Below, in pieces: positions 20,308 to 39,429 of a DNA stretch of 50,961 bases. How positions within the stretch are numbered: position 1 is the first letter of the stretch; every line of letters begins with the position of its first letter. Below the pieces are notes generated by a model. That model was not told the DNA's origin. It made no database searches and was given only the letters and a program-made list of their open reading frames with translations. This stretch comes from Eubacteriales bacterium (GTDB lineage Bacteria > Bacillota > Clostridia > Oscillospirales > CAG-272): NCBI GenBank assembly GCA_045602215.1, contig JAZSBE010000046.1, positions 1-50,961 on the forward strand, given 5' to 3'. A program made the translations under genes and the position numbers.

Positions 20308-21333
20308 TTATCTTTTTCCATACATCTCTTCGTAGTATTTTACGTACTCGCCCGAGGTGCACTCCTGCATCCAATCCATATGCTCGCGGTACCATTGAAT
20401 GGTCAGCTTGATGCCGTCAGCGAACATGGTGGTCGGTCCCCAGCCAAGCTCTCTGTTTGCCTTGCTCGGATCGATCGCATAACGCTGGTCGTGTCCCTTG
20501 CGGTCGGCAACGTAGGTGATCAGACTCTCGGGCTTGTTCAGCTCCTTGAGGATGATTTTTACGATCTCAATGTTTGCCTTCTCGTTGTGTCCACCGAGAT
20601 TGTATACTTCACCCACTCTTCCTTTTTCAAGCACCGCCAGAATGCCGTAGCAATGGTCCTTTACGTAGAGCCAGTCGCGGACGTTCAGACCCTCGCCGTA
20701 TACGGGGAGAAGCTTATCCTGAGACGCGTTGTTTATCATCAGGGGGATCAGCTTTTCGGGGAACTGATAGGGACCGTAGTTGTTGGAGCAACGGGAGATG
20801 GTCACGGGCAGTCCGTAGGTTCTGTGGTACGCCATAACGAGCAGGTCTGCGCTTGCCTTGGAGGTAGAGTAGGGGCTGCTGGTATGGATGGGGGTATCCT
20901 CGTGGAAGAAGAGGTCGGGTCTGTCGAGCGGGAGGTCTCCGTAAACCTCGTCGGTGCTGACCTGATGGAATCTCTCAATGCCGTATTTACGGCAGGCATC
21001 CATCAGAACCTGTGTTCCGAGAATGTTTGTCTCGAGAAAGATCCCGGGGTTTTCAATCGAGCGGTCTACGTGACTTTCCGCGGCAAAGTTGACGACGACG
21101 TCGGGCTTTTCTTTTTCAAAGATCTTGAAAATTCCTTCGCGGTTGCGGATGTCCTCTCTGTAGAAAACAAAGTCAGGGCTTTTCATCGCATCGTTGAGCG
21201 TATGGATGTTGGCAGCATAGGTAAGTGCATCGACACACACAACCTTCCAGCCCGGACGCTCTTCGAGCAGCATATAAACAAAGTTTGAACCGATAAAGCC
21301 TGCTCCACCGGTAACAAGAATCGTCTTACTCAT
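20308..21333 (-). CDS. rfbB: dTDP-glucose 4,6-dehydratase
   Basis: [61 protein letters not shown]. Confidence 0.96.
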
Positions 21334-22207
21334 ATTTCAAAGCCCCCTTTGCAACACTGATCAGATATTGTCCGTATTCTGTCATTTTAAGCTCTTCGCC
21401 CAGCTTCAAAAGCTGTTCTGCATCAATAAATCCTCGACGGAACGCAATCTCCTCGATGCAGGAAATATAGAAGCCCTGTCTGTCTTGCACGACCTGAACG
21501 AATTCGGAGGCCTTTAGCATTCCTTCGGGCGTTCCCGTATCAAGCCACGCGATTCCGCGCCCCATCAGCTCAACGTTCAGCTCGCCCATCTCAAGATAAG
21601 CGTTGTTGACGGCGGTGATTTCGATTTCTCCGCGGGCAGAAGGCTTCACGTTCTTCGCGATCTCGATCACGCGGTTATCGTAGAAATAGAGTCCGGGAAC
21701 CGCGTAGTTAGACTTGGGCTGCGCGGGTTTTTCCTCGATGGAAACAACTTTGTGGTTTTTATCAAACTCAACAACACCGAAGGCGCGGGCATCCTTTACG
21801 GGATAGCCGAATATGGTTGCGCCCACCTTGCGGTCACGGGCGTTCCAAAGCGTTTTGCTGATATCCTTGCCGTAGAAGACGTTGTCTCCCAAAATGAGAC
21901 AGACGTTGTCATCGCCGATAAATTCTTCGCCAAGGATAAACGCATCAGCAAGTCCGCGCGGCGTTTCTTGAACCTTATATGTGAACTTGACTCCGATTTT
22001 CTCGCCCGTGCCCAGAAGCTTCTCGTAGTTCGGTAAATCATCGGGGGTTGAGATGATCAGAATCTCGCGAATCCCTGCAAGCAGCAGCATGGATAAAGGA
22101 TAGTAAATAAGCGGCTTGTCGTAAATGGGAAGCAGTTGCTTGGACACGACCTGTGTCATGGGATAGAGGCGCGTGCCTTTGCCGCCTGCAAGAATGATGC
22201 CTTTCAT
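21326..22207 (-). CDS. rfbA: Glucose-1-phosphate thymidylyltransferase
   Basis: [52 protein letters not shown]. Confidence 0.96.
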
Positions 22208-22217
22208 ATTTTTTCTC

Positions 22218-23327
22218 CTAATTCAAAATGATGTCGCAAATTTTATCAACGTCCTCAATACTCAAATGCGCAAAAAGGGGAAGACAAAGAATATTTCTTG
22301 AAATTTGAAGTGCTACAGGAGTATTTGCCGTCATATCACGGTCAAATTCCTTATTTTCGGAAACTAACGGATAGAAATATTTTCTAGCTAAAATTCCGTT
22401 CTCCCCAAGCTTTGTCGCCAGGGCGTCTCTGTTCGATCCGAACACGGATGCGTCAACCAAAATGGGGTAGTAGGCGTAGTTTTGCTTCAGACCGTCCACA
22501 AAGCTGAGCAGCTTGATACCGTTGGCATTTGCAAGTCTTTGGTTGTAACGCTCAAAGGCTTCCTGCCGTGACTGAAGCTCCGCATCGATGTATCGCAGAT
22601 TGCAGATTCCCATTGCCGCGGAAAATTCATTCATCTTGGCGTTTGTTCCAAGGCAAACAAGCTCGTCTCCGCAGACACCGAAGTTTCGCTCCTTGGATAT
22701 CTTATCGGAGAGCGATTCATCCGAGAAGGTCAGGCAGCCGCCCTCGATGGTATGGAACACCTTGGTTGCATGGAAGGAAAACATGGAGATATCTCCCCAA
22801 TCGCCAATTCCGCGTCCCTTGTACTCCACTGCGAAAGCGTGAGCGGCGTCGTAAATGACCTTTAGACCGTGCTTGTCCGCAATGCGCTGAATTTCCTCAA
22901 CCGCGCAGATGTTTCCGTAAACGTGAACACCCAATATCGCAACCGTCTTGTCGGTGATCAATTCTTCGATTTTACTCTCATCAATCGTAAAATCGTCCTT
23001 GATATCGCAGAAAACAGGGGTGCATCCCGCCTGAATGATCGCGTTGGTTGTGGACGCAAACGTAAAGGGAGTGGTGATGATCTCACCCTTCAGCCCCAAA
23101 ACCCGAATCGCAGTATATAAACCGAGGTGACCGTTGACAAAGAGCTCAATGTTCTTGACCTTGAGGTAGTCCTTCAACTGCGTTTTCAGTTTGTTATGTA
23201 TGGGGCCCATATTCGTCAGATGAACGGTTTCCCAAATGGATTTGATTTCCTCACAATACTCCTCGTATAGGGGCATCGAGGAACGGGTTACGTTGATTCT
23301 GTTTTTTATTTCGCTCATTTCATTCAC
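22218..23327 (-). CDS. DegT/DnrJ/EryC1/StrS aminotransferase, VioA-like (dTDP-4-amino-4,6-dideoxyglucose forming)
   Basis: [58 protein letters not shown]; adjacent to rfbAB. Confidence 0.85.
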
Positions 23328-23405: not shown

Positions 23406-24827
23406 TTATAAATCACCAATATCAGTGATCACGCCAAATTGATCTTTATATGTTGTTTTACATAGAATATAGAAGATCAGTCCAAGTAACGACCATCCTC
23501 CAACAATCACCCATTCCTGCAAGGAAAGCGTGCTGCCGGAGCCAATAATCAAATAAGAGAGAACCAACAATCCCGAGAGCACAGTTGCCGTAATTCCAAC
23601 AAATTTATAGTGCTTTACCTTAAAAGGACGAAGCATTTGCGGCTTTTTCTTTCGCAGTATCAGAAAAGAAATGGACACCATGCAATAGGCAAGGCAACAA
23701 CCAAAGCTGGCCGCATTTGAAATCCAAACCAACATCGTTTTACCGAAAAAGGGCGCAACAATCGACAGCAATCCCATCAGCAAAAGTGCGTTGATCGGGG
23801 TTTTATACTTTGAATGAAGCTTAGAAAACACTTTCGGGATCATACCGGATTCAGCCATAGAGAAAATTGCGCGGCTTCCGCCAATCAGGAAAGAATTCCA
23901 GCTTGTTACAACACCGCAAAGACCTCCGATAATCAGTATCTTAGCCATCGCCGTACTATTAAAGGCGCGTTCCATAGCTATTGCCGTTACAAGACCGGAG
24001 CCTTGCATTGCGCTCTTTATATTTTCCGGATTCATAATAAAACCTACCGCAAACACAACCAACACATAAAAGCCAACTGCGCAAACGATCGAAAGAAGTA
24101 ATATCCTTGCAAGCTTTTTCAACGGTATATTGATTTCCTCAGCAACCTGAGGGATCACATCAAACCCAAACAGGAAAAACGGCGCAACGGCAGCGACTGA
24201 CATGATGCCCCTCACCGCGCTAATACCGTTTCCTACAATGAGTTGCCCCTCCAGGTTTTCGGGAGAGCCGTTCACCGCAGAAGCCGCAACTAAAGCAACT
24301 CCAACGCCGGCAATTACAATCGTAAGAACAGTTTGAAAAACAGATGCCGCTTTAATTCCCAATATATTCAAAACAAGAATCGCTACCGTAAACACGATTG
24401 ACACCATAACGCCTGTCAGATAGACGTCCGAACCGGCGATTGTATATAGCTTCACTTGCATAAAAGCGGGAAACAAATATTCTATAATTGTCGGAAGCGA
24501 TACAGCCTCAAAGCACACCACACCAATATAACTAAGAATTAGCGCCCATGTACAAACAAAAGAGCCTGTGGAACCAAGAGCCATATAACTGAACACATGC
24601 TCGCCGCCCACTTTGGGCATCGCAGGCGTTAGCTCGGCATAGGTCATACCGACAAAATAGATCATTAAGCCGCCAATCAAAAAGCCAAGAAGTGTGCCTA
24701 CAACGCCGGCGTTTTGGATCCAGTTACCGGAAGATACTACCCATCCCCATCCGATCATCGCGCCAAAGGCAACGACTAAAATATCGGTTGCCCCAAGCAC
24801 CTTGCGCAAATTTTGTTTGTCACTCAT
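23406..24827 (-). CDS. APC family amino acid permease
   Basis: AFGAMIGWGW, YAELTPAMPKVGGE, FLFGFDVIPQVAEE, GSRAIFSMA; 12 TM segments. Confidence 0.9.
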   Translation of the reverse strand: MSDKQNLRKVLGATDILVVAFGAMIGWGWVVSSGNWIQNAGVVGTLLGFLIGGLMIYFVGMTYAELTPAMPKVGGEHVFSYMALGSTGSFVCTWALILSYIGVVCFEAVSLPTIIEYLFPAFMQVKLYTIAGSDVYLTGVMVSIVFTVAILVLNILGIKAASVFQTVLTIVIAGVGVALVAASAVNGSPENLEGQLIVGNGISAVRGIMSVAAVAPFFLFGFDVIPQVAEEINIPLKKLARILLLSIVCAVGFYVLVVFAVGFIMNPENIKSAMQGSGLVTAIAMERAFNSTAMAKILIIGGLCGVVTSWNSFLIGGSRAIFSMAESGMIPKVFSKLHSKYKTPINALLLMGLLSIVAPFFGKTMLVWISNAASFGCCLAYCMVSISFLILRKKKPQMLRPFKVKHYKFVGITATVLSGLLVLSYLIIGSGSTLSLQEWVIVGGWSLLGLIFYILCKTTYKDQFGVITDIGDL

Positions 24828-24846: not shown

Positions 24847-25965
24847 TCAATTGTTACCGGGCCATTGGATCATCTCTTCGAATTCGCGACGCAAGCCTCT
24901 CTTATAGATCATCTGACTCATGATCTGTCCTGCATGATTTCCTTCCATTATGCACCAGCCCTTCGGAGTCAGAACAACGTCCCAACCAACGTATCGGAAC
25001 GTGGGCAATTTTAACGCGATCTCTTTGCCAAACTCCAGCAATTCATCCCATTTGGGAATCTGATAGCCCTTGAAGCGAATACCGGAATCAGGATGGACTT
25101 CAACGCTTTCTCCACTTTCCTTGCAACCGTCGGTAACGATGATACCCGTTGCAGGATCAATACCTGCATCAAATCCATCGATTGCAGCACTGGCAATGAA
25201 GGATCCCGATGCACCAAACTTGATCCAAGGGTAGAAAAAGGATACTTGATCACCGTTGCGGATTGTAATCAGACGGATTGCGTTAATGGAAGACGGATGA
25301 AAAGCAGCCAATTCCTCTACCTGCTCGATCAACTCTTCCAATACAAGAGACTTCACGCTTTCTAATCTTGAAAGCTTTTTGGAATCCTCCATGATTTGCA
25401 TCAATGATCGGAACAGCTCATCTGTGTCGGCATAATCTGCTAAAGAGATTTTTTTGACACCATAAGCACCGCTGCCACCAACCGGTTTCACTACAAATTC
25501 AGGGTGCTTTTCGACAAAGCTGTCGAATTCCATACGGTCTTCCTCGCCCTTCAGCTCAATCATATCTCGCTTATAGTATTCCTTCAATAGCTGGTATGCT
25601 TCATACTTGTTGCGCAACAGATGCCAGTCATCCGGATTGTTCAAATAACGATAATAATCCCACCGATTACGGTCGGTAATATATTCGCTGCGTTCCTCAT
25701 CGGTTTTTGTTTCCAAATTCAAGTAAATCTCTTCTTCGATGGAAATACCAAACACCCAATAGTCATACAGCGACATATAGTAAAGATTTCTTTTCTGTTC
25801 TTCCGTACGTTCAGAACAATACTTGTTGATAGGCTCCCAAATACGCTTTACCAGTTGCTCGGTATAGAGCTGCGGGTTTTTTCTCTCAATTTCCATACCA
25901 ATTTGGATTCTTTCTTCTCTGTTATCCGTTTTTGGAATCCAATCGGTATCAATAAAATAAAACAT
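24847..25965 (-). CDS. Sugar-transfer-associated ATP-grasp protein
   Basis: VVKPVGGSGAYGV, LEELIEQ, SINAIRLIT, HPDSG..FKGYQIP.W, YVGWDV...MEGN. Confidence 0.82.
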   Translation of the reverse strand: MFYFIDTDWIPKTDNREERIQIGMEIERKNPQLYTEQLVKRIWEPINKYCSERTEEQKRNLYYMSLYDYWVFGISIEEEIYLNLETKTDEERSEYITDRNRWDYYRYLNNPDDWHLLRNKYEAYQLLKEYYKRDMIELKGEEDRMEFDSFVEKHPEFVVKPVGGSGAYGVKKISLADYADTDELFRSLMQIMEDSKKLSRLESVKSLVLEELIEQVEELAAFHPSSINAIRLITIRNGDQVSFFYPWIKFGASGSFIASAAIDGFDAGIDPATGIIVTDGCKESGESVEVHPDSGIRFKGYQIPKWDELLEFGKEIALKLPTFRYVGWDVVLTPKGWCIMEGNHAGQIMSQMIYKRGLRREFEEMIQWPGNN

Positions 25966-26129: not shown

Positions 26130-27395
26130 TTATATTTTCTCGGGGTCAAACAACGAGACAATCATATTGTTTCCGTTTCCGTCATACACACGAATTTTAT
26201 CATAAATACGCTTTACCGCATCCTTCAACTGATCAGCCGTATCTGCCACGACAATAACGTGCGCATAGCGCTGATGCGTATTACCAGTCGCGGAGATTTC
26301 CGAGCCGGGCGCATGATAAAATGCGACATACTCCACCTCAGGCATTTTTTGAATCTCATCAAAGCCTTCTTCCGCCGCAACCAGTCCGGCACATACGTTG
26401 ATTTGCAGTCGGATTGTCGTTTTTCCGTTGAGCAGATAGCTGCTTTCATCAATTTTCTCTTCAGTCGGGAAGGTGCCTGTCAAAGCATAGTGAATCATGG
26501 CCTTCGGGACGTCGATTCCTGTAAGCCTCTTGAATGCACGTTCATACTCGCCACCTGCAAATCTTCTGCCGGGGTCAAAGTACAGCACGTCGTCATCCGT
26601 AAAGAATCCCTGTGCTACAAAGGGGCCGTCCTTTACGCCGATACTCTTGAGCATATTCACCAGTCTTCCGTTTTCTTTTCGAATATACTCATCCGACTTC
26701 ACGGACGGAGATCTATATGCTACGGCCACCTTTCCCAAGCCTACGCTCTCATCGCCAAAATAAGCATCAGACAACTGTTCCAGATATGCCTCGCCGTTTA
26801 CAAACAAATATGTAACGCAGAACGCGTCCTTGAATTCAACATACTGCTCAATGACGTACTGACTGTCAAAGGATGCTTGCTTGGCAACCTCAATCGCTTC
26901 AATGACTTGATCCTTGGTCGTGCAGACGGTCGCGCCTCTTGAGCCGCGGCTGTTGGAGGGTTTTACAATGACGGTAAAAGGCAGTTCATCTGTTATTTCT
27001 TCCAATTTAAGGCGCGCCGGAACACCAACGCCGTATTGCAGGCAGCAATCCTTAAAATCCTTTTTACGCGTTAAAATATCAAAGTGCTCTTTTGTTCCAT
27101 AGCAGGGCAAACCGGTTTTTTCGCACAAGCGCTGATAGTGAGGCTGAACAAAATCGAACCATCCGCTCACGATGCCGTCAATGCCTTCTTTCTCGCAAAG
27201 CTCTGCCAGGCGTTCTGTCTCGGTGACGTTGATCAAATACGAAAAGTCGGCCATTTCTTTTGCGGGGGCCCCTTCAACGTTGTCCACCACGTACGTAATT
27301 ACGCCCAGTTCCTTGGCGGCTTCGACTACCTTACAATGCTGCGAACCGCCGCCCATAACAAGCAGCTTCTTGCCGCTTAATGCACAATAACTCAT
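26130..27395 (-). CDS. ATP-grasp domain protein (carbamoyl-phosphate-synthase-like)
   Basis: KKLLVMGGG, VIVKPSNSRGSRGAT, VIEQYV, FDPGRRFAGG. Confidence 0.82.
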   Translation of the reverse strand: MSYCALSGKKLLVMGGGSQHCKVVEAAKELGVITYVVDNVEGAPAKEMADFSYLINVTETERLAELCEKEGIDGIVSGWFDFVQPHYQRLCEKTGLPCYGTKEHFDILTRKKDFKDCCLQYGVGVPARLKLEEITDELPFTVIVKPSNSRGSRGATVCTTKDQVIEAIEVAKQASFDSQYVIEQYVEFKDAFCVTYLFVNGEAYLEQLSDAYFGDESVGLGKVAVAYRSPSVKSDEYIRKENGRLVNMLKSIGVKDGPFVAQGFFTDDDVLYFDPGRRFAGGEYERAFKRLTGIDVPKAMIHYALTGTFPTEEKIDESSYLLNGKTTIRLQINVCAGLVAAEEGFDEIQKMPEVEYVAFYHAPGSEISATGNTHQRYAHVIVVADTADQLKDAVKRIYDKIRVYDGNGNNMIVSLFDPEKI

Positions 27396-27410: not shown

Positions 27411-28370
27411 TTATTCCACATTCCCCAAGAAACGTCGGATCTTTCGATGGAGTTTAGGGAATCTACAGTGAAGTCTATCAGAAAGACGACGTTTAAAGGG
27501 TCTGGCCTTGTAAAAGTCCTTCAATTCCTCACTTAAAATCGCATCAAGGTCATGATTCATTAACGCCTGCATATACTTTTGCTCGCTAATTTTTCTTTGA
27601 ATCAACTCATGATACTTAAAATTTGTATCCCGATCCATGTTTTCCAAACCGACGATCATTTTTGAGCAATTATTGGCTCTGACCCTATCATTATCATTTT
27701 GCTTTGTCCATGATCCAAGCGCCCTCCACCGATAGACGCACATAACGTCCGATAACATACGGACCTTGCCGTTCATAGCTGCATAATAGGTCAACGGAAG
27801 ATCTCCTACAGGAAATCCCCACGCGGGAAGACTTTTCCAAATATCTGCTTTTAAGAAGAAAGAAACCGTAGTAAAGGGTCTTCTATGCTTGGGAGATAAA
27901 AATTCTTCCAAGGTGATATCTCTGTCCTCGTTTGACAATCCGCGTGTTGTTACCATCTCTCCGGAAAGCATATTTAACCATGCGGTACTGCATCCACACA
28001 GCGTATACTCCGGATTATTCTCCATAAAATCATATTGCTTCTGCAATTTCAAGGGGTCCGTCCAATAATCGTCACCCTCGCAAAGAGCGATATATTTTCC
28101 TTTTGCGCGTGCCGCCTGAAGTCGCCTGATGGTTCTGTCAAATTTTGAATACTGGTTTTCGGTTTGATAGATCGGCTTGATCAATTCCGGATATTTTTGT
28201 TCATATTCTCTGACGATATCTGCGGTATGATCGGTTGATGCGTCATCATGAACTAACACTTCAAAGGTGAAATTGGTTTGCTGCATAACAAAACCTTCCA
28301 ACGCATCACGCACATAATTTTCCTGATTATAGACATTGCAAATAATGCTGACGTCAACGTTTTCGCGCAT
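27411..28370 (-). CDS. Family 2 glycosyltransferase
   Basis: VSIICNVYNQENY, HDDASTD, ALCEGDDYWTDPLKLQKQ. Confidence 0.92.
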   Translation of the reverse strand: MRENVDVSIICNVYNQENYVRDALEGFVMQQTNFTFEVLVHDDASTDHTADIVREYEQKYPELIKPIYQTENQYSKFDRTIRRLQAARAKGKYIALCEGDDYWTDPLKLQKQYDFMENNPEYTLCGCSTAWLNMLSGEMVTTRGLSNEDRDITLEEFLSPKHRRPFTTVSFFLKADIWKSLPAWGFPVGDLPLTYYAAMNGKVRMLSDVMCVYRWRALGSWTKQNDNDRVRANNCSKMIVGLENMDRDTNFKYHELIQRKISEQKYMQALMNHDLDAILSEELKDFYKARPFKRRLSDRLHCRFPKLHRKIRRFLGNVE

Positions 28371-29821
28371 TATGCTTCACCTCTTTTTTTCTTTTTCAAC
28401 AGTTGTTTCAGAATTTTTAATGTATACGAAAAGCTCTCTATTTTAAGTAAAATCGAAGCCAAAACATAAATCGCTATTCCAAGAGGAATCTGGATCAACA
28501 GCGTGAGCCAATCGCTCAGTCCCAAAAAGCGGCAGCTATATACAATCAAGCCCATAACACAGCTGATTAAAAAATGAGGAAGAATATCCTTGATTTGCTC
28601 AACATAGCGATAATTTAACAGGGTTTTGTTTGGATATGCGTTGATCAGCTGAGAGATAAAAGTGGTAATTAACAAGCTGTACGCCATTGCCTCGACGCTG
28701 ATGGGAGCCGTAATTGCGATCGCAATTACGCCCACAACTTTTTTGGCAATCTCCAGCCTTAAGAACAAATCGCCTCTTCCCAGAGCTTTAATCGCATTCA
28801 GGTTAGCCGTTGCCAACGGGTAAAAGGAATACGTAATGCAAAATACTCTCATAAACGGTACGCACGGTAGCCACTCTTCTGTCAGAACCAGTCTGATCAA
28901 CGGCTCGCCGCATGCGGCAAGCCCCAGCATAAGCGGCATCATAACGTACGTACTGATCGAGATTGCCCTACGGGTCATAGAGCGTAGCTTTTCACAGGAA
29001 TCCTGCGCCTTAGATAACGTTGGAAACAGTACGCTGTCTATGGAAACGTTAACGTTGTTTACAATCAGGTGAGGGAATTGTTTTCCCTTGTTGTAGTATC
29101 CCAAGCTGGTAGCGCTATAAAGTTTTCCAATCAGCAGGGTTCTCAGGTCTTGGTACACCGTATCAAGAAGCTTGGCTCCCAAAAGATTCATTCCCAAGGG
29201 GAACAATCCTTTCAAACGAGTCCAAGAGAACTTGAGCTTGGGGCGCCATTTAACCACGAACCACAGAATCACCGTATTGATCAATCGGTTACTCAATGAC
29301 TGACCGATCAAAGCCCAAACGCCAAGCCCGCGCCAAGCCATGATCACTGCGATGATACCCGAACAGATTGTTCCGCCCAAGGATGCATAAAAAAACGTTC
29401 GGAATTGCAGATGTCTTGAAACGTATGCGTGCTGGATGTTTTTCACACCTGATACGACCAATATTAGGCTGAGAACGCGAATATATGCGATCATATCCGG
29501 CATTTCATAAAAGCCCGCAATCAGAGGCGCAGCGAAATACATCAGCGCGTACAGGACCACGCACATTCCCATGTTGAACCAAAAAACGCTGGAAAAATCC
29601 ATATCATCTGCGTTCTTCTTCTGGATCAATGCAGTCCCAAGTCCGCTATCAACAAAAACCTGTAAAACGCTGGTGAACACTGTCATCAGCGCAATGATGC
29701 CATAGGCCTCGGGGCCAAGCATTCGCGCCAAAATGATCGAGGTCACAAACGTCACGCCCTGGGCTGCACAACGCTCCAACAGTCTCCAAAGAAAGCTGTT
29801 AACTGTTTTTCTTTTATTCAT
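28370..29821 (-). CDS. wzx: Wzx-type polysaccharide flippase
   Basis: ILARMLGPEAYGIIA, VDSGLGTALIQKK, IGKLYSATSLGYY, VLFPTLSK; 12-14 TM segments. Confidence 0.9.
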   Translation of the reverse strand: MNKRKTVNSFLWRLLERCAAQGVTFVTSIILARMLGPEAYGIIALMTVFTSVLQVFVDSGLGTALIQKKNADDMDFSSVFWFNMGMCVVLYALMYFAAPLIAGFYEMPDMIAYIRVLSLILVVSGVKNIQHAYVSRHLQFRTFFYASLGGTICSGIIAVIMAWRGLGVWALIGQSLSNRLINTVILWFVVKWRPKLKFSWTRLKGLFPLGMNLLGAKLLDTVYQDLRTLLIGKLYSATSLGYYNKGKQFPHLIVNNVNVSIDSVLFPTLSKAQDSCEKLRSMTRRAISISTYVMMPLMLGLAACGEPLIRLVLTEEWLPCVPFMRVFCITYSFYPLATANLNAIKALGRGDLFLRLEIAKKVVGVIAIAITAPISVEAMAYSLLITTFISQLINAYPNKTLLNYRYVEQIKDILPHFLISCVMGLIVYSCRFLGLSDWLTLLIQIPLGIAIYVLASILLKIESFSYTLKILKQLLKKKKRGEA

Positions 29822-31172: not shown

Positions 31173-32333
31173 TCAGTGTTTCTTCTTTTTCATTGTTGCT
31201 TTATAGTTGAACACTTGATGGAACAAATGATTCCAGAAAGGTTTAGGATCCTTTTTATCGTACAAAATCTCTGTGGTGTTTTTCCAGCTGAACCACGAGG
31301 GCTTTGCGCTAAAGCGCTTGGAGGATTTCAAGAACCATGCAATATCGGTGTCAAAATGGCGGATATACATTCCGAATTTTTTATTTTCTTCGTATTGTGT
31401 CACTTCTTCACCAAGTACCATTTCCAACATTTGTCTTGAAATATTAAAGCCACACAAATACGCCATCTTTACGCTTGCCGGAATACGACCGTTGATCTCT
31501 AACAGACGGGGCTCACCGGTTTCCTTGTCGATCATAAAACCAACATTGGCAAATCCCTGCCATTTCAACTCCTGAAGCAGCTTTCCTGCATACTGTATTG
31601 CTTCGGGTGCCTCAACAGCCTGAATCAAAACGCCGGTACCCGCATCGAGCGGAAACCATCTCAAGACGTCTACTGCGTATGCCGAGCAAACATTCCCCTT
31701 AGGATCGATAAACAGATTTGTTCCGATTCGTTTGTCAAAGTTCACAAATTCCTGCACGACGTAGTTGTCAACGTCAAAAGCGGGATCATTCAGATAAGAA
31801 CGGAATTCCTCCTCCGTCTCAAACTTATGAAAACCGATAGATCCCAAGCCCTGACGAGGCTTGATGATAATGGGGAATTTAGCGTGAGCCAAGAAGTCTT
31901 CAATATCCTGCGTGCTGTGCCTTGTGTACGGGCAAGGGATCCCTGCTTGCATAGCAGCATCAAAGGTGATTTGTTTATTAAAAGCTTTGATGTAAACTTC
32001 TCTCGGCGCGCATGCCAGTTTTACGTACTTGGCAAATTCGGCCTCGTGCTGCGTCACCATGTTTGTGCTCATTTCACCGATCGGCATAAAAACGTCATAT
32101 TTGCCGGTCTTTGCAAGATCCAGCAAATAGGGGATATACCTTTCATTTTGCGGAGAAATGTCTTCTGCAAGCAATTTTACATCCGGAAGATTCGATACGT
32201 AACAAGTATTCTGTACGGATGAACACAGTACGGTAATATGACAGCCTAATTCCTTCAGACCCTTAATCATTGCGTGCGGCTGCTTGCCGGCACCGCTCAA
32301 AACCAAAACTCGGATTGTTGTGAAATCCACCAT
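31173..32333 (-). CDS. ATP-grasp carboxylate-amine ligase family protein
   Basis: FPIIIKPRQGLGSIG, VVQEFV, GFANVGFMID, LLEINGR. Confidence 0.85.
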   Translation of the reverse strand: MVDFTTIRVLVLSGAGKQPHAMIKGLKELGCHITVLCSSVQNTCYVSNLPDVKLLAEDISPQNERYIPYLLDLAKTGKYDVFMPIGEMSTNMVTQHEAEFAKYVKLACAPREVYIKAFNKQITFDAAMQAGIPCPYTRHSTQDIEDFLAHAKFPIIIKPRQGLGSIGFHKFETEEEFRSYLNDPAFDVDNYVVQEFVNFDKRIGTNLFIDPKGNVCSAYAVDVLRWFPLDAGTGVLIQAVEAPEAIQYAGKLLQELKWQGFANVGFMIDKETGEPRLLEINGRIPASVKMAYLCGFNISRQMLEMVLGEEVTQYEENKKFGMYIRHFDTDIAWFLKSSKRFSAKPSWFSWKNTTEILYDKKDPKPFWNHLFHQVFNYKATMKKKKH

Positions 32334-32335
32334 TT

Positions 32336-33031
32336 TTATGCCTCCACCTCTTCATTCCTCTTGCATATGTATGCTGCCTGCTCCTGCGCCTCTTCCTCGT
32401 ATTTGGTCAAAGGGAAGTTCTTTTTCTTCAAAAGAACGATTTGAACGATCAGCTGTACCGTTCTGAAGATACAGTAGATATCCAATACGCACGACTGCTT
32501 CTCTACGTACATCTTTGCCAATTGCGTTCTGACCGGCACGATGTTTTGCTTGTAAAAATCCGAATCGGTAACAAAAAGATCCCCGTGCGTATAGTCATAC
32601 AAGCTATCCAGACAAGCAAGTCCCGGTCTGACAGTCAACACCGACGATGCGTCGCCCGTATACAACCGATTTACCACTTTTTGCGGGTACGGGCGAGGGC
32701 CAACAAACGACATATGGCCTAAAAAAACATTTACAAGCTGTGGCAGCTCGTCCAGCTTACTCTTTCTCAAAAAAGAGCCGAATGCAAAAATGCGATCATT
32801 GTTTACCAAGCATCCTTTCTCTACCACGCCTTCTTCCTTGACGTGCATGGATCGGAATTTATACATCGTAAACAGTTTTCCGTTCAGTCCAACACGCTCA
32901 CTGACGTACAGAACGGGGCCCTTGCTGGATAACTTGATTCCAACGACGATGATTAAGAGGATCGGTGCCAGGATCAGGATCGCCATAGCGGACACGATGA
33001 TATCAAATAATCTTTTAACAACCTTGTACAT
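32336..33031 (-). CDS. Initiating sugar-phosphate transferase (small monotopic PGT)
   Basis: KRLFDIIVS, KFRSM, SKLDELPQLVNV...MSFVGPRP, VRPGL. Confidence 0.92.
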   Translation of the reverse strand: MYKVVKRLFDIIVSAMAILILAPILLIIVVGIKLSSKGPVLYVSERVGLNGKLFTMYKFRSMHVKEEGVVEKGCLVNNDRIFAFGSFLRKSKLDELPQLVNVFLGHMSFVGPRPYPQKVVNRLYTGDASSVLTVRPGLACLDSLYDYTHGDLFVTDSDFYKQNIVPVRTQLAKMYVEKQSCVLDIYCIFRTVQLIVQIVLLKKKNFPLTKYEEEAQEQAAYICKRNEEVEA

Positions 33032-33042: not shown

Positions 33043-33702
33043 TTACTTTGTTTCTCTGATCAGCATAAATGCCTCGGCGGCCTTTACGTTTACGGTTGCG
33101 CCCCTGAACTTAGCCAACGCTTCAACGCTCTCCAAGGAACGCAGATCCGGGAATGGATGTACCTGCGATTCGAAGAAATTTAACGTTTTTAGCTTGTCAT
33201 CCAGGAAATCGGAAATATCCTCGAACACATTCGGAATAAACGAGTAATTTTCGGTAGGAAGATTGATTCCCGTTTCGGACAGGGTTTCATACGCATAGAT
33301 ACGCTTTACAGGATGATTGTATTTGCTTCTGAGAGCGACCATAGCAGCTTCGGTTACAATTTGATGATCCTTTTGCATATCACCCCAAAAGGGAAGGTAA
33401 ATCTCATCCGGCTGAACGCGTACAATGGTATCCAAAATGGCTTTGTTCAACTCTCTTCTGGAGAACGACTCCAAATTCACCGCGGAAAATGGCAAGCCTA
33501 TATATTCGTCCACGCCGCAAAACGCATGCGCTTTCTTCATTTCCTCATGAATTCTTGCAACGTTGGGCGGCAGCTGCTGACCTTCACGTGCGGTAACGAC
33601 ACAAACCGCTACTTGATCGCCTTGGGCTTTTCTTTTTAAGATCGTTCCCCCCACGCCCAATATTTCATCATCTCTGTGCGGGGCAAAAATAAGTATCTTC
33701 AT
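33043..33702 (-). CDS. PIG-L family de-N-acetylase
   Basis: APHRDDEILGVGGT, D..KDH, AYETLSET, AKFRG...AEAF. Confidence 0.9.
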   Translation of the reverse strand: MKILIFAPHRDDEILGVGGTILKRKAQGDQVAVCVVTAREGQQLPPNVARIHEEMKKAHAFCGVDEYIGLPFSAVNLESFSRRELNKAILDTIVRVQPDEIYLPFWGDMQKDHQIVTEAAMVALRSKYNHPVKRIYAYETLSETGINLPTENYSFIPNVFEDISDFLDDKLKTLNFFESQVHPFPDLRSLESVEALAKFRGATVNVKAAEAFMLIRETK

Positions 33703-33745: not shown

Positions 33746-35017
33746 TTACTCAAAAAAACGGGCAACGTCAAATCGTTCAAACAACATATTTTGACCGTCA
33801 ACGTCATCTATTTTTACGCGATTTTGTATGCATTGAATACGTTCGGCCATTTCTTCGAGCGTATCCGCCCGTAGCTTGAATGAAATCACACGCTGTTGCG
33901 TGGTTCCTCTGTCAAGAATGTTTTTTCCTGCGTACACATATTTGCTTACGTCAAGCACGTTTTTGTCGACCTCGGGATAATCAACGTGACCAACCTCGCC
34001 GCCATGCGCATACATAACGTACGTAGCCATAAACTGTTTGATTTGGGGATTATCTTTTTCGAGGGAATCCCCCATAGAGCCGGTCAACGAGTGGTTGATG
34101 AGCATTTTCATATGATTGATCCCATTGCATTTGTCCAAAAGCTTCCAATCGTTTCCGCCGTTCAATCGCAATCCCATTTCAAAGGCTACGATTTTCTCGT
34201 CGGTGGCAATTAACTGGAATCCGGCGATACCGTTTTTTACGCCGATATCTCTCAAGAAATTTTTTATCTTGGCATCAACGGTATCCAAATACAGCTGATA
34301 ATATCTTGAAGGGGTAATTGCAACGTCGCACAAGCAAGAATACTTTTTCCCTTCTTTTGACAGATACTTGTCATTTATGATGGACAAGCTGATTTCCTCA
34401 TCCACGATCGTGTAGATTGCGGTAAGCTCCATTCCCGACAAGTATTCTTCTACCACCACTGTGTGCGTGATCGAATTTTGCTCTGCCAAAATCAAGGCAT
34501 CGTCCAATTCTTCTCTGTTGTAGCAAACCGTAATTCCGATTCTTCCGGCGTAATCCGCCGGCTTTACAATCACAGGATATTCGATACTGTCTTTATCGAG
34601 GTCGCACACCCTTCCGTTCTTGCAATATTCTCTTGGAGTAGGTATGCCGTTTTTGATACATAATTCCTTGAAAACTCTTTTGTTTCTTGTTAATTCAACC
34701 TGCTCCGGGGTGACGTAAAAGGGGGTCCCCAGCTTCTGCGCAAGCTGAGCTGCGTAAAACACCTTTCCCTCGCTATACCCCGAGAACACACCGTTGACAC
34801 CAACCTCAAGGCATTTTTCGGCTAAACGGTCTATATCCGAGTAGTCCATATCCCACGCCTCGTCAGCAACGGCTTTTGCAGGAAGCTTGAACGTATCGTT
34901 GCCTCTTTCGGTGACAATTGTATATACTCCCATTTCCTTTGCCTGAGTCACAATATTGGAAATATTGGCTTCTCCGCCGATAATAAGCAGTTTTTTGCCG
35001 CGAGCCTCTTCAAACAT
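33746..35017 (-). CDS. ATP-grasp domain protein (paralog of 26130-27395)
   Basis: KKLLIIGG, YPVIVKPADYAGRIGI, VVEEYL, FEMGLRLNGG. Confidence 0.82.
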   Translation of the reverse strand: MFEEARGKKLLIIGGEANISNIVTQAKEMGVYTIVTERGNDTFKLPAKAVADEAWDMDYSDIDRLAEKCLEVGVNGVFSGYSEGKVFYAAQLAQKLGTPFYVTPEQVELTRNKRVFKELCIKNGIPTPREYCKNGRVCDLDKDSIEYPVIVKPADYAGRIGITVCYNREELDDALILAEQNSITHTVVVEEYLSGMELTAIYTIVDEEISLSIINDKYLSKEGKKYSCLCDVAITPSRYYQLYLDTVDAKIKNFLRDIGVKNGIAGFQLIATDEKIVAFEMGLRLNGGNDWKLLDKCNGINHMKMLINHSLTGSMGDSLEKDNPQIKQFMATYVMYAHGGEVGHVDYPEVDKNVLDVSKYVYAGKNILDRGTTQQRVISFKLRADTLEEMAERIQCIQNRVKIDDVDGQNMLFERFDVARFFE

Positions 35018-35040
35018 ATTTCCTATCCCTTTCTGCGGAA

Positions 35041-36006
35041 TTAAATCGTCTTCAAAATTTTAATTTCGTTATATTTCATCATGTAAATGCCTTCATCGTA
35101 AGCACCAATGCACTTTTGATTTGCCTTGCCGCTCAGGTTTTCCAAGATCAACTTCATATGATCACAGCCCGATTCATATGCATGCGGATAACCTCCGCCG
35201 AATCTTGGATTCACCTCGCTGATATAATACAGACCGTCGATTTCGAATATATCGATATCAATCTGCCCTTTATATCCTGCCTCCGAGACAAACGCCTCAA
35301 TCAAGTCAAATAGAACGGGATCCTTAAAGCTGACCGCCTTGTCGGTTTCGCCGGCGCGCATTTTGAGTTTCTTTTTGGTGAAGATGGATACGACCTCACC
35401 GGAAATCATATCGATATACACATCTGCGCCAATCTCCTGCCCGCCAAGGAATTCCTGAATCATCAAGTCATCGCGGTGGGCAAAAAGCTGTTCAACGGTA
35501 TCCCTGTCATATACCTTTGAAATGCTGACGCTTGCAGAGCCCTTGTAAGGCTTTACAAATACGGGATATGTCACCTCGCCGGCCTCGACCGCCCTGTAAA
35601 ACGCATCCTTGTCATCCCAGGAGCGCGCGCATTTATAGCCGTGATCTGCTAGCCAACGGTACATTTGCATTTTGTCCAAGGACATCTCGCAGAGATCGTA
35701 GGAGCTACCGATTACTTCCGTTCCAATCGCATGAAAGCGATCCGCATTCTCTGCCAAAAGACTGAGCTCCGGATCGATAAGGCTTAAAACTCCGTTAATT
35801 TTTTCTTTTTGACAGATGTCCAAGATGACGTCTATATATCCCGGTTCCGTAATCGGCGGAACAATGTAGTATTTATCCGCTTCATAAATAGCCGGTCCGA
35901 GATTGCTGGAATCTGAAGCAACGATCGTTCCGACGCCGTCAAACGTTCTTTTGAAATACTGGACAATCTTATTTCTTGTTCCTGCCGCTAATATCAAAAA
36001 GTTCAT
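35041..36006 (-). CDS. ATP-grasp domain protein (CPSase-like, polysaccharide-associated)
   Basis: MNFLILAAGTR, YPVFVKPYKGSAS, IQEFL, MRAGETDK, SEVNPRFGGGYP; AGGAG RBS. Confidence 0.88.
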   Translation of the reverse strand: MNFLILAAGTRNKIVQYFKRTFDGVGTIVASDSSNLGPAIYEADKYYIVPPITEPGYIDVILDICQKEKINGVLSLIDPELSLLAENADRFHAIGTEVIGSSYDLCEMSLDKMQMYRWLADHGYKCARSWDDKDAFYRAVEAGEVTYPVFVKPYKGSASVSISKVYDRDTVEQLFAHRDDLMIQEFLGGQEIGADVYIDMISGEVVSIFTKKKLKMRAGETDKAVSFKDPVLFDLIEAFVSEAGYKGQIDIDIFEIDGLYYISEVNPRFGGGYPHAYESGCDHMKLILENLSGKANQKCIGAYDEGIYMMKYNEIKILKTI

Positions 36007-36017
36007 CTTACTGCTCC

Positions 36018-37292
36018 TTAAAAGCAACTCTTAACAATTTCAATCACCCGATCCTGCTGCTCTGCCGTCATGTTGATGTCACTCGGCAGGCACAGGCCGC
36101 GGGCAAAGATATCTGCACCGATGTCTTTGCAGCCGCCTGCGATATAGGCGTTGGTTCTGCAGCGTCCGCTGCCTTCGCGCGTGACGAACTCGTGCATGCG
36201 GTACATGGGCTGCATATGCATCGGCTTCCAGATCGGTCTGCCCTCGGCGTTACAGTCGGCGAGCGCCTCAAGGATCTCCGTCGGGCAGGTCTTGCCCTTC
36301 TCGGGGGTGTACAGCGCCGTGGAGTCGTCTCTGACCTGTCGGCACATTGCGCTCTCGTCGATAATCATGCAGGACAGCCAATAGTTGGGCTCCGTTCCGT
36401 CGGTGATCGGATTCATCTGAACGGGCAAGCCCTCAAAGCCCTCTTTGTATCTCTCGTAAATCGCCTTTTTTCTCGCGATGTGTTCCTCCAGATAGGGATA
36501 CTGGCCGCGCACGACTCCCGCGATGACGTTGCTCATGCGGTAGTTGTAGCCGACCTCCTCGTGCTGATACCAAGGCGCGTTTTCTCTTGCCTGCGTGGAC
36601 CACTTGCGGGCCTTGTTCGCGACCTCAAGATCGTTCGTCAAGAGGCAGCCGCCGGAAGAGCCGGTGATGATCTTGTTTCCGTTGTAGCTGATTGCAGAAT
36701 AGTCTCCGAAGGAACCGCACTGCTTGCCGTTGAGCGTGGCACCCGTCGCCTCGGCGGCGTCCTCAATCAGAAGCGCGCCGTGCTTCTCGCAGATTTCCTT
36801 GATGAGATCGATCCGTCCGGGGAAGCCGTAAAGCTCTGCGGATACGACCAGCTTCACGTCGGGATACATCTCAAACGCCTTCTCCAATGCAACGGGATCC
36901 ATATTCCAGGACTCTGCCTCGGTGTCGATGAACACGGGAACGCCGCCCTCGTAAACGACGGGGTTGAGCGTTGCGTCAAAGGTCATATCCGAGCAGAAGA
37001 CGCGCTTGCCCTCGAGAGCTCCGTGACCGATCGCGGGCTTGCCGTAGATGGTCTCTCCCGCGTGCTTGACTGCCAAATGGAGCGCGGCGGTGCAAGAGGA
37101 GAGTGCAACGGCGTATTTCATTTCCGCCTTTTGTGCGGCAATGCGCTCGACCTCGTTGATGTTCTCGCCGACCGTACTCATCCAGTTCGTATCATACGCC
37201 TGACGGATATATTTCATTTCCTCTCCGTGCATGGTCGGCGTGGCAAGCCACACCTTCTTTTCAAACGGCGCAAATTGTTTTGAGCTTTTCAT
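36018..37292 (-). CDS. DegT/DnrJ family UDP-sugar aminotransferase (PglE/EpsN-like)
   Basis: VWLATPTMHG, SSCTAALHL, IEDAAEA, SYNGNKIITGSSGG, GYNYRMSN, RPIWKPMHMQP. Confidence 0.9.
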   Translation of the reverse strand: MKSSKQFAPFEKKVWLATPTMHGEEMKYIRQAYDTNWMSTVGENINEVERIAAQKAEMKYAVALSSCTAALHLAVKHAGETIYGKPAIGHGALEGKRVFCSDMTFDATLNPVVYEGGVPVFIDTEAESWNMDPVALEKAFEMYPDVKLVVSAELYGFPGRIDLIKEICEKHGALLIEDAAEATGATLNGKQCGSFGDYSAISYNGNKIITGSSGGCLLTNDLEVANKARKWSTQARENAPWYQHEEVGYNYRMSNVIAGVVRGQYPYLEEHIARKKAIYERYKEGFEGLPVQMNPITDGTEPNYWLSCMIIDESAMCRQVRDDSTALYTPEKGKTCPTEILEALADCNAEGRPIWKPMHMQPMYRMHEFVTREGSGRCRTNAYIAGGCKDIGADIFARGLCLPSDINMTAEQQDRVIEIVKSCF

Positions 37293-37344
37293 TTACCGTG
37301 TACCTCAAAGTCGTTGTTTTTCGCTTGAATCAAACCTACGGGGC

Positions 37345-39429
37345 TTACTTCGCTGCCGCGAGATGTTCCTCGTCCTTTTGCATGACCTGCTTCATTTGCT
37401 CGGCGTAGGCTGCTCCCTTGTTCTCGGATCCGTGCTTGCCGGCGGGCCGGTAGGTGGGGACGACCTCCGAGACCAGATCGCGGATGGTGTCCTCGCAGCC
37501 GTCGTAGGCGGCGGTCATCAGCATTTGCAGCTGTCCCAAAAATTCGTCTGTGTCAAAGGGAATGGGACGTCCGATGTGGATCAGCTGATTGGGAGTGGTT
37601 TTCATGCCTTCCTCGGACATGAGCTTTTCCTCATAGAGCTTTTCTCCCGGGCGCAGTCCCGTATAGGAGATCGGAATGTCCACGTCGGGACGCAAGCCCG
37701 AGAGGCGGATCAGATTTCTTGCAAGGGTATCGATCTTGACGGGGGAGCCCATGTCCAGCACGAAGATCTCGCCGCCGTCGGCGTAGGTTCCTGCCTGAAG
37801 CACGAGAGACGCTGCCTCGGGGATCGTCATGAAATAGCGGATGATGTCGGGGTGGGTGACGGTGACGGGGCCGCCCTTGGCGATCTGCTCCTTGAATCTC
37901 GGAATGACCGAGCCGTTGCTACCCAAAACGTTACCAAAGCGAACCGCAACGAACTCGGTTTGCGGTGCTTGGGAGGCGGTATTCATGCCCTGCATACTGC
38001 CGTAGGAGTCCTCGGTATGTACGTGGAGGGGAGAGAGGTCGCCTGCCTTGCCTTCTCTGATCTTCTTGTCAAAGGACTGAATGATCATTTCGCAAAGACG
38101 CTTGGACGCACCCATGATGTTGGTGGGGTTGACGGCCTTGTCGGTGGAGATGAGAACGAAACGCTTGCATCCGTTCATCATTGCCGCATAGGCGGTCTTG
38201 TAGGTGCCGACCGCATTGTTCTTGATGGATTCGCAGGGGCTGTCCTCCATCAGGGGAACGTGCTTATGCGCGGCGGCGTGATACACCACCTCGGGCTTGT
38301 ATTTTGCGAAGACCTGATTGATGCGCTTGCTGTCTCTGACCGAGCCGATCAGGACCTCCAGATTGAGGCTCGGGAACTTATCCTTGAGCTCCAGCCCGAT
38401 CGCATGGGCGTTGTTCTCGTAAATGTCGAAGATGATCAGCTGCTTGGGGTTATGCTGGGCGATCTGTCTGCAAAGCTCGCTTCCGATCGATCCACCGCCG
38501 CCCGTAACGAGAATCACCTTGTCGGTGATGAAGCGGTAGATCTCGTCCATGCTGACCTTGATAGGCTCGCGACCGAGCAGATCCTCCACCGCGACGTCCT
38601 TCAGGGAGCTGACCTTGACGTCAAGCGTCACCAGCTCGTACATACCGGGGAGGTTTTTGAGCTCGCAGGGCGTTTCCTTGCAGATGTCCAGAATGTCGCG
38701 TCTCTGGGCAGCCGTTGCGCTCGGGATCGCCAGATAGATCTTTTCGATCTTGTATTTTTCTACGTTGAGGAGAATGTCCTCTCTGCCGCCGACGATCGGT
38801 ACGCCGTCAATGAAGCGTCCCCACTTGTTGGTGTCGTCGTCAATGATGCAGCAGACGCGGTCGTTGACCTCCTTGGCGTTGTGCATATCTCGCAGGATCA
38901 TCTGTCCTGCCGAGCCTGCGCCGATCAGCATTACGCGGCGTGCCAGTGACTTTTCGATCGCTTTTGTGCGCTTGCGGCTTTCAAGGGTTGCGAATCTGTA
39001 AGCGAATCGAATGAACAGAATCGCCAAAAACTGAATCGCAATGCCCACGATGTAATAGGTGACGGGCATTTTGGAAAAGAGAGCGGAGATACCCACGGCG
39101 TGGAAGACGCCGAGGATCGCCGTGGCGACCGTAATCTTTTCCAGCTCGGTGAAGCTTGCGAACTTCCAAACGCTCTGGTAGAGGCGAAAGCCCCAGAACA
39201 CGAGAATCACCACGATCGCGTAGATCGGAGCGAATCTGATCCATGCGTTCAGGTTTTTCACGGGGATCGCCGAGAAGCGGCAGTCAAAGCGCAGCCAGAG
39301 GGCTGCAAAGTAAGAGCCTGCGCTGACCGCAATGTCGTATGCTATGAGAAACAGGGTCACAATGTGCCAGTGCTCGAACGGCACCGGTCGCTTGTTCTCC
39401 TGCGTTACCTTCGTTTTGTTATCCATCAT
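37345..39429 (-). CDS. Membrane-bound UDP-GlcNAc 4,6-dehydratase (CapD/PglF/EpsC family)
   Basis: N-terminal TM segments, IGAGSAG, VTGGGGSIGSELCRQ, HAAAHKHVP, STDKAVNPTNIMGASKR, RFGNVLGSNGSV, GLRPGEKLYEE. An alternative GTG start at 39507 also has an RBS. Confidence 0.93.
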   Translation of the reverse strand: MMDNKTKVTQENKRPVPFEHWHIVTLFLIAYDIAVSAGSYFAALWLRFDCRFSAIPVKNLNAWIRFAPIYAIVVILVFWGFRLYQSVWKFASFTELEKITVATAILGVFHAVGISALFSKMPVTYYIVGIAIQFLAILFIRFAYRFATLESRKRTKAIEKSLARRVMLIGAGSAGQMILRDMHNAKEVNDRVCCIIDDDTNKWGRFIDGVPIVGGREDILLNVEKYKIEKIYLAIPSATAAQRRDILDICKETPCELKNLPGMYELVTLDVKVSSLKDVAVEDLLGREPIKVSMDEIYRFITDKVILVTGGGGSIGSELCRQIAQHNPKQLIIFDIYENNAHAIGLELKDKFPSLNLEVLIGSVRDSKRINQVFAKYKPEVVYHAAAHKHVPLMEDSPCESIKNNAVGTYKTAYAAMMNGCKRFVLISTDKAVNPTNIMGASKRLCEMIIQSFDKKIREGKAGDLSPLHVHTEDSYGSMQGMNTASQAPQTEFVAVRFGNVLGSNGSVIPRFKEQIAKGGPVTVTHPDIIRYFMTIPEAASLVLQAGTYADGGEIFVLDMGSPVKIDTLARNLIRLSGLRPDVDIPISYTGLRPGEKLYEEKLMSEEGMKTTPNQLIHIGRPIPFDTDEFLGQLQMLMTAAYDGCEDTIRDLVSEVVPTYRPAGKHGSENKGAAYAEQMKQVMQKDEEHLAAAK

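Follow-up and report, generated by a model that had tools for sequence, protein, structure and literature searches.

To our knowledge, few enzymes that add nonacetyl acyl groups to bacterial amino sugars have been characterized, among them Pyl, PglB2, and the C-terminal domain of Cj1438 (Cj1438C). Here, we compare such systems with a locus of five ATP-grasp ligases (AG1 to AG5) that lies in a stretch of 50,961 nucleotides, hereafter the window (contig JAZSBE010000046.1 of assembly GCA_045602215.1; C46 in our numbering), from an uncultured, gut-type genome of the Clostridia. We propose that ATP-grasp amide ligases replace N-acetyl and N-formyl transferases in a Wzx/Wzy surface-glycopolymer operon and that they acylate its amino sugars. 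From gene families and gene context, we put the probability of this reading at about 0.65.

Pyl acts in the UDP-yelosamine pathway, which was reportedly described by Hwang et al. in 2014 in J Biol Chem. In Bacillus cereus ATCC 14579, the pathway comprises Pdeg, Pat, and Pyl, the last being an ATP-grasp enzyme that joins 2-oxoglutarate to a UDP-4-amino sugar and that is encoded just upstream of a small phosphoglycosyltransferase (PGT), as given in the accessible part of the source (PMC11626204). The window likewise holds a UDP-N-acetylglucosamine (UDP-GlcNAc) 4,6-dehydratase, a 4-aminotransferase, and an ATP-grasp ligase near a small PGT, here operon genes 1 to 3 and gene 6, so that the PGT stands three genes past AG1. 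Compared with the Pyl system as far as it is described there, the window has four ligases beyond AG1, together with a PIG-L family deacetylase, a second (dTDP) branch, and two transporters, and AG1 is likened to Pyl by gene context and described role. Neisseria PglB2 is an ATP-grasp/PGT fusion that makes a glyceramido-acetamido-trideoxyhexose (PMC11130364, from the accessible part). PglB2 resembles the proposed role of AG1 in that the acetyltransferase for the 4-amino group of a bacillosamine-type sugar gives way to an ATP-grasp enzyme, which is linked to the PGT that starts assembly. In the window, however, AG1 and the PGT are not fused and two other genes stand between them, and the predicted product is a Wzy-made polymer rather than a protein-linked oligosaccharide; the likeness to PglB2 is by description, not by sequence.

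The C-terminal domain of Campylobacter jejuni Cj1438 is a TupA-like ATP-grasp amidoligase that amidates glucuronate in the capsule, according to the excerpted text of PMC11800379. AG5 is comparable as a capsule-locus ATP-grasp enzyme with a predicted glycan amide bond and a coupling to a family 2 glycosyltransferase (GT2), since one AG5 relative, on another contig, forms a fusion with a GT2. As described in that text, Cj1438C activates a sugar carboxylate (C-6 of glucuronate), whereas the operon in the window makes no uronic acid, and AG5 belongs to PF14397, not PF14305. Escherichia coli O antigens bear glycine, alanine, serine, and threonine in amide linkage to their sugars, and E. coli O123, as well as Salmonella enterica O58, contains 4-{N-[(S)-3-hydroxybutanoyl]-D-alanyl}amino-4,6-dideoxyglucose (PMC7685785, in the portion of the review available). 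A two-residue acyl-aminoacyl chain on a 4-amino-4,6-dideoxyglucose made by RmlA, RmlB, and VioA is the same chemical idea as the one proposed for the window. O antigens are parts of Gram-negative lipopolysaccharide (LPS), whereas the window has up to five ligases with candidate dedicated importers around one operon of a probable monoderm, and ATP-grasp is named nowhere in the available portion of that review.

In bacillithiol and mycothiol synthesis, a PIG-L deacetylase (BshB or MshB) acts first and an amino acid is then ligated to the freed amine. The same order is suggested in the window by a triad of PIG-L, PGT, and AG3, and the closest solved relative of its PIG-L protein is BshB (PDB 6p2t, E 2e-11). 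With 70.3 bits against the BshB1 equivalog (cut-off, 182.5), the protein is a PIG-L family member and not BshB. Moreover, these pathways yield a thiol cofactor rather than a polymer, with BshC or MshC as the ligase rather than an ATP-grasp enzyme. The chemistry of the window and one of its enzyme types therefore have precedents, and the sequence-only reading of the locus had gone too far in calling it an undescribed pathway: Pyl, PglB2, and amino acids amide linked to O-antigen sugars, including Qui4N (4-amino-4,6-dideoxyglucose), were already known. Single steps are known; this combination is not. In the open-access literature we found no characterized locus with this gene set, nor a PIG-L/AG3 module, ligases like L-amino acid ligase (LAL) and ATPgrasp_ST ligases in glycan loci, a ligase-importer pairing, or five ligases stacked on an operon with one glycosyltransferase (GT).

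The genes of the operon are given below in transcription order, followed by two flanking genes.

37345-39507, minus strand: PglF-like membrane-anchored UDP-GlcNAc 4,6-dehydratase, 720 amino acids (aa), GTG start (Polysacc_synt_2, 381 bits, with CoA_binding_3)
36018-37292, minus strand: PglE-like sugar 4-aminotransferase (DegT, 241 bits)
35041-36027 (likely start, 36006), minus strand: AG1, PylC-like_N plus ATP-grasp_3 ligase (PylC-like_N, 127 bits)
33746-35017, minus strand: AG2, LAL/PurD-like ATP-grasp ligase (Pfam; PDB 4dim and 3vot)
33043-33702, minus strand: PIG-L family de-N-acetylase (PIG-L, 69.4 bits; cut-off, 28.2)
32336-33031, minus strand: small monotopic PGT, the predicted initiating enzyme (Bac_transf, 173 bits; cut-off, 27)
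31173-32333, minus strand: AG3, ATP-grasp ligase like carbamoyl phosphate synthase (CPS) (Pfam; synteny with PIG-L and PGT)
29856-30974, minus strand: Wzy-type polymerase, EpsG family (EpsG, 123.5 bits)
28370-29821, minus strand: Wzx flippase (Polysacc_synt_3, 325.5 bits)
27411-28370, minus strand: GT2, the sole GT of the operon (Glycos_transf_2, 66.7 bits)
26130-27395, minus strand: AG4, LAL-like ATP-grasp ligase (LAL_C2, 50.6 bits; cut-off, 29.4)
24847-25965, minus strand: AG5, ATPgrasp_ST ("sugar-transfer associated") ligase (PF14397, 154.9 bits)
23406-24827, minus strand: APC-family amino-acid/amine permease (AA_permease, 138.7 bits)
22218-23327, minus strand: DesI/VioA-like dTDP-4-keto-6-deoxyglucose 4-aminotransferase (DegT, 297 bits)
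21326-22207, minus strand: RmlA glucose-1-phosphate thymidylyltransferase (TIGR01207, 464.8 bits; cut-off, 360.65)
20308-21333, minus strand: RmlB dTDP-glucose 4,6-dehydratase (TIGR01181, 460.1 bits; cut-off, 365.1)
18541-19899, plus strand: stand-alone DctM-like permease, convergent with the operon (PF06808, 173 bits)
17451-18398, plus strand: LysR-family regulator (Pfam; 65% identical to a LysR gene beside RmlB in genome G125)

The 16 open reading frames (ORFs) of the operon all lie on the minus strand from 39507 to 20308 and are tightly spaced, the largest gaps being 198 and 164 bp. Each scored above the Pfam curated cut-off for the family that the sequence-only reading had named, in the order in which it had named them; the cut-offs of NCBIfam equivalogs were passed by RmlA, RmlB, and AG1 only. 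The limit proposed at 39429 would be an in-frame start codon, 26 codons into the PglF-like ORF (37345-39507). An initiating PGT, a MOP-family flippase, and a multipass polymerase were all present by Pfam. From these family assignments, we conclude that the 16 genes form a polysaccharide operon of the Wzx/Wzy type, in which one small PGT and one GT2 are joined by five ATP-grasp ligases of three types. A Pfam search found no acyltransferase, RmlC, RmlD, Wzz, or LCP gene among the operon genes, as had been claimed; two Wzz-domain genes (contigs C9 and C22) and one LCP gene (C65) lie elsewhere in the host genome. The claim of one elongating GT held for the operon, with its single GT2, but five further GT2 matches and three GT4 hits occur in trans.

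Two branches of amino-sugar synthesis are predicted. In the first, the PglF-like dehydratase and the PglE-like aminotransferase would make a UDP-4-amino-4,6-dideoxy-N-acetylhexosamine. The best solved relatives of this aminotransferase are PDB 1o61 and 4ztc (E 2e-61), which we take to be C. jejuni PglE. Its best model is of the LegC family (278 bits, under the 420 cut-off); a nonulosonic acid pathway was considered and rejected, as the operon has no NeuB-type synthase. In the second branch, RmlA, RmlB, and the second aminotransferase would make a dTDP-4-amino-4,6-dideoxyhexose, and both RmlA and RmlB scored as equivalogs, as expected of a viosamine pathway. The second aminotransferase appears to be DesI/VioA-like (DesI model, 277 bits versus a cut-off of 650; DesI structure 2po3, E 7e-52; VioA structure 5u1z, E 9e-31), and the gluco configuration at C-4 is not readable from these scores. 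At the level of gene families, the synthesis of two nucleoside diphosphate (NDP)-4-amino-4,6-dideoxy sugars, initiation by the PGT, transfer by the GT2, flipping, and polymerization are predictions as good as established.

Classification of the ligases by hidden Markov models and structures gave three types. Short CPS-like enzymes make up the first (AG1 and AG3); AG2 and AG4, each of about 420 aa, are LAL/PurD-like paralogues at about 28% identity; and AG5 is of the ATPgrasp_ST type. AG1 matched NF009406 with 519.5 bits (cut-off, 271), a model that bears the legacy name "carbamoyl phosphate synthase-like protein," and its closest solved relative is PDB 2pn1 (E 2e-90), which is unpublished and, like NF009406, has no assigned function. 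The nearest homologue of AG1 is 321 aa long, and position 36006 is the likely start of AG1. AG2 has as solved relatives 4dim (E 3e-10) and the L-amino acid ligase 3vot (E 4e-9), and no LAL_C2 match was found in it at E<=0.01. AG4 combines an ATP-grasp core with LAL_C2 as a domain match, as is typical of the LAL group. A PDB sequence search found no solved structure related to AG5, and an AlphaFold model of AG5 (51 sequences; pLDDT, 93.9) had an all-helical N-terminal domain at about residues 16 to 131 followed by the ATP-grasp core, with GAR synthetase, ArgX/LysX, and RimK as the nearest folds (TM, 0.41 to 0.45). All five ligases are full length, and by eye the lysine of K-P-x-x-G and a metal motif of the E-x-N or E..R..N type can be recognized in each. 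A BLAST search at E<=1e-6 found no paralogue of any of the five elsewhere in the 1.68-Mb assembly, and thus their clustering is not due to chance.

How the ligases relate to the amino sugars was approached through their neighborhoods in a single sample of some 400 genomes from the class to which the host belongs (399 to 401 per query), with AG1, AG3, AG4, and AG5 as queries. AG1 (E<=1e-40) matched 29 of 401 genomes, the host included, and gave 29 loci from the 28 others, with flanks of 1.5 kb. At 39% identity or more there were 16 loci; a small PGT lay beside AG1 in 11 of them and a PglE-like aminotransferase in 9, and triads of PglE, PGT, and AG1 were found in which AG1 and the PGT were adjacent but separate. 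Among the 13 loci of 29 to 37% identity, 7 lay beside a VioA-like gene (54 to 61% identical), RmlA, or RmlB; Wzx was beside 6 and a PGT beside 3. Because PglE/PGT and VioA/RmlA/RmlB neighbors recur, the AG1 family is seen, by gene context, to track the synthesis of NDP-4-amino sugars, whether of the UDP or of the dTDP branch. In a role like that of Pyl or PglB2, AG1 would place a carboxylic acid on the 4-amine of the UDP sugar. AG3 (E<=1e-15) matched 17 of 400 genomes, the host included, with 17 loci from 15 other genomes of the class and flanks of 1.5 kb. Genome G125 keeps the order PglE (71%)-PIG-L (74%)-PGT (52%)-AG3 (65%)-Wzy-Wzx-GT2 (65%); PIG-L, PGT, and AG3 are also together in G044 and G042, and PGT and AG3 are together in two more genomes. 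By the logic of bacillithiol synthesis, PIG-L would strip the 2-N-acetyl group and AG3 would reacylate the freed amine.

AG4 (E<=1e-10) matched 73 of 400 genomes, a query that also catches AG2-like paralogues. Again in G125, AG4 (73%) is followed by VioA (77%), RmlA (88%), RmlB (94%), and LysR (65%), and a stand-alone DctM-like permease adjoins the AG4-type ligase in 4 of 11 nonself loci (G125, G333, G313, and G224) and ligase blocks in G075 and G083 as well. The window's own DctM-like gene, for which TRAP models scored under their cut-offs, is 46 to 48% identical to those in the ATP-grasp loci of G125, G075, G083, and G313. We consider this permease the probable importer of a carboxylate substrate, and AG4 would attach the imported acid to the 4-amine of the dTDP sugar. 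The permease and the LysR gene (17451-19899) probably belong to the ligase system, such that the locus is likely to extend to 17451, and LysR possibly controls either the DctM-like gene or the locus. Twenty nucleotides before the LysR start, at 17403-17431 on the plus strand, is a 12-of-12 sigma-70 consensus (TTGACA, 17 nucleotides, TATAAT, with an upstream TG). Acylation with amino acids or short peptides had been proposed without notice of these two genes. That proposal stands in part, and the synteny of DctM-like and LysR genes with ligases elsewhere points to organic acids, and not just amino acids, as substrates.

AG5 (E<=1e-10) matched 53 of 399 genomes. In G315 and G383, an AG5-like gene (39 to 46% identical) is followed by an APC permease that is 74% and 68% identical, respectively, to that of the window. 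We infer from this context that the APC permease, which also scores with an ethanolamine permease model, is paired with AG5. With an amino acid or amine taken up through that permease, AG5, and perhaps AG2, would lengthen an acyl group. LAL-like and ATPgrasp_ST ligases lie within about 6 kb on one contig in 11 other genomes of the 399 sampled; nine of these clusters were examined, and a small PGT was present in eight, with a DegT aminotransferase next to the PGT in six. Five ligases in a locus is not unique, because G083 also carries five ATP-grasp genes; there they accompany five GT4 genes, and what is distinctive in the window is five ligases with a single GT.

A sister locus belongs to G125, of a different family in the same class, and is found in two parts, at 495-7857 of L089 (contig C99) and 5410-13065 of L028 (contig C97). 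It has a block of a partial ATP-grasp gene, DctM, AG4, VioA, RmlA, RmlB, and LysR as well as the block from PglE to GT2, at 43 to 94% protein identity and only 65 to 73% nucleotide identity. The sister locus is without AG1, AG2, AG5, and the APC permease, and these four genes therefore look like an added layer of decoration. Taken together, the conserved neighborhoods strongly support, at the level of gene context, the earlier claim that ATP-grasp ligases stand in place of acyltransferases and form amide-linked acyl or aminoacyl groups on amino-deoxy sugars.

In the pathway that we propose, the small PGT would start the unit on undecaprenyl phosphate, the single GT2 would add the second sugar, Wzx would flip the unit, and the EpsG-type Wzy would polymerize it; the LCP and Wzz genes elsewhere in the genome would see to attachment and length control. 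The product would be a short-repeat polymer of amino-deoxy sugars with acyl or aminoacyl chains of one to two residues. The substrates, the size of the repeat, and the charge of the polymer are matters that we infer. The disaccharide repeat, three free amines, and zwitterionic character suggested by the sequence-only reading are conjectural, and other GTs are present in trans. We further suggest, much more tentatively and at clearly less than even odds, that the operon exemplifies a class of clostridial surface polymers not described so far, one in which a very short repeat carries a short, nonribosomal peptide-like chain on each amino sugar. Several ATP-grasp ligases of three types would build these chains stepwise on NDP- or lipid-linked sugars, using organic and amino acids from ligase-dedicated importers, DctM-like with the AG4 type and APC with the AG5 type. 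If true, a glycopeptide coat would be made without Mur ligases or a nonribosomal peptide synthetase.

Several observations weigh against ligase-mediated acylation of the amino sugars. Beyond the family level, the whole account is guilt by association. Seven of the 29 AG1 loci had no informative neighbor (two were contigs of less than 2.7 kb), and 12 of the 17 AG3 loci showed the ligase only. The G125 locus works without AG1, AG2, AG5, and the APC permease, so that these four may form an accessory layer that serves some other purpose, and the DctM-like gene, on the opposite strand, could be unrelated. The boundaries of the operon are supported by gene spacing alone, because promoter- and terminator-like sites in the window are as frequent as in shuffled sequence. 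Finally, the genome is 77% complete, and GTs in trans could lengthen the repeat.

Might the ligases act late instead, adding amines to carboxylates of a lipid-linked or polymerized glycan, with no acylation of NDP-sugar amines? AG5 is in a sister family of the TupA-like ATP-grasp domain of Cj1438C, with a weak match to PF14305 (16.8 bits, E 0.005, under the 25-bit cut-off), and an ATPgrasp_ST-GT2 fusion on another contig, L001, mirrors the GT2-ATP-grasp fusion of Cj1438; the ethanolamine model matched by the APC permease would also suit the addition of amines. The operon has by Pfam no uronic acid-forming dehydrogenase, however, and so makes no sugar carboxylate itself, and the AG1, AG3, and AG4 families track makers of amines (aminotransferases and PIG-L). 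We consider late action unlikely as a general account, although for AG5 it is plausible where an N-linked dicarboxylic acid offers a free carboxylate.

Somewhat less likely again is that a free dipeptide or acyl-amino acid is the product of AG2 and AG4, alone or together with AG5, being either a separate secreted metabolite or a preassembled unit, and that only one ligase per sugar does the attaching. The LAL_C2 domain of AG4, the match of AG2 to the L-amino acid ligase 3vot, and the possibility that both transporters are equally exporters would fit a free product. Its recurrent neighbors would not: in eight of the loci examined, LAL-like ligases lie directly beside small PGTs and DegT aminotransferases, AG4 lies beside VioA and RmlAB, and Pfam found in the operon none of the genes for peptide export or resistance that typically go with dipeptide antibiotics. 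Least probable is an ordinary capsule or cell wall locus with a longer repeat, served by GTs and acetyltransferases in trans and carrying some ATP-grasp genes as inactive passengers of an acquired cassette, for while the low G+C (GC) content of the genes from AG1 to VioA (0.41 to 0.48, versus 0.53 for the genome), the additional GT2 and GT4 matches, and the lack of four genes in the G125 locus would agree with it, the five ligases are full length with catalytic motifs kept, each has conserved, function-linked neighbors in other genomes, and the operon makes two or three sugar amines yet holds no acyltransferase.

Acylation of the amino sugars by ATP-grasp ligases would give five ligase subfamilies, each with a predicted acceptor or role: a UDP-4-amino sugar, a 2-amine freed by PIG-L, a dTDP-4-amino sugar, and two chain extenders. 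Two of the five come with candidate substrate importers. The attachment of amino acids to O-antigen and capsule sugars, long unassigned, would thereby be open to direct testing in vitro. Decorations of this kind determine how charged and antigenic a surface glycan is, and the ligase chemistry may be relevant to recognition by hosts and phages. About 3% of the sampled genomes of the class carry clusters that combine ligases, and many homologues come from gut metagenomes.

The host assembly (G000) comprises 1.68 Mb in 78 contigs, with a GC content of 0.53. PglF, PglE, and the upstream NrnA gene have GC contents of 0.56 to 0.57 (0.73 to 0.75 at third codon positions), PglF being at 0.559, a host-like value, whereas the 12 genes from AG1 through the second aminotransferase are at 0.41 to 0.48. 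Because of this step, we think that a variable cassette, probably acquired horizontally, lies between host-like flanks. Among 24 genomes of the same genus, only G007 had a close AG1 homologue (66% identity), in a different locus of the order PGT-AG1-GT4-GT4-GT2-EpsG. Clusters at 90% identity have two to four members each for AG2, AG3, AG4, and the APC permease, versus 942 for RmlB. The host is probably a monoderm of the Clostridia, because an LCP gene was found in the assembly, itself 77% complete, and LpxC was not; an LPS O antigen was rejected on the same grounds and with the same limit.

Wider searches were made for AG1, AG4, and AG5. At E<=1e-20, AG1 had at least 7,999 scored candidate homologues, the best 120 of the 7,999 being 81 to 98% identical. 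A plasmid search with AG1 gave 29 records, all at about 30% identity and mostly alphaproteobacterial, and an atlas search with AG1 returned generic names only, mostly from Bacillota. A metagenome scan with AG4 gave 87 pattern matches and no relatives, and one with AG5 alone gave two loci.

Other arrangements of these ligase families were noted. In G313, a viosamine-type locus (L032, 7908-12082) has the order Wzx-GNAT-(AG1-like)-(AG4-like)-DctM-VioA, and its two ligases and acetyltransferase fit a single amino sugar that bears an N-acetyl-aminoacyl or acyl-aminoacyl chain. On L001 (6263-17814), a contig of uncultured Bacilli, a teichoic acid-like locus carries three ATPgrasp_ST genes, one of them the GT2 fusion (864 aa), with a Mur-ligase-LRR protein, a CapA-like (PGA_cap) protein, a TagF-type glycerophosphotransferase, and an ABC-2 exporter. 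A search for longer AG5 fusions yielded a single protein, P0278, an 809-aa fusion of PGA_cap and ATPgrasp_ST. The L001 locus and P0278 hint at glutamyl-type chemistry for the ATPgrasp_ST family.

Signs of additional glycan loci were seen elsewhere in the host genome. C11 holds a second PglF-like gene (43% identity) together with a GT2, C32 has a second RmlA/RmlB pair, and other PGTs lie on C43, where one adjoins a GT4, and on C60. Among other envelope-glycan genes in the rest of the window, a WecG/TagA-family transferase is encoded at 984-1745 (plus strand), a phosphoglucomutase/phosphomannomutase that could feed glucose 1-phosphate to RmlA at 1985-3514 (minus strand), and a VCA0040/DUF368-like putative undecaprenyl-phosphate translocase at 4999-5850 (plus strand). 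A 1,068-aa ORF at 8851-12057 (minus strand) had no Pfam match and overlaps long plus-strand ORFs at 8695-10392 and 10642-12138, likewise unmatched, so that either frame may be the real one. Two genes upstream of the operon, at 40886-42325 (plus strand), is a beta-helix/GH28-like protein with a pectate lyase fold that might be a polysaccharide depolymerase.

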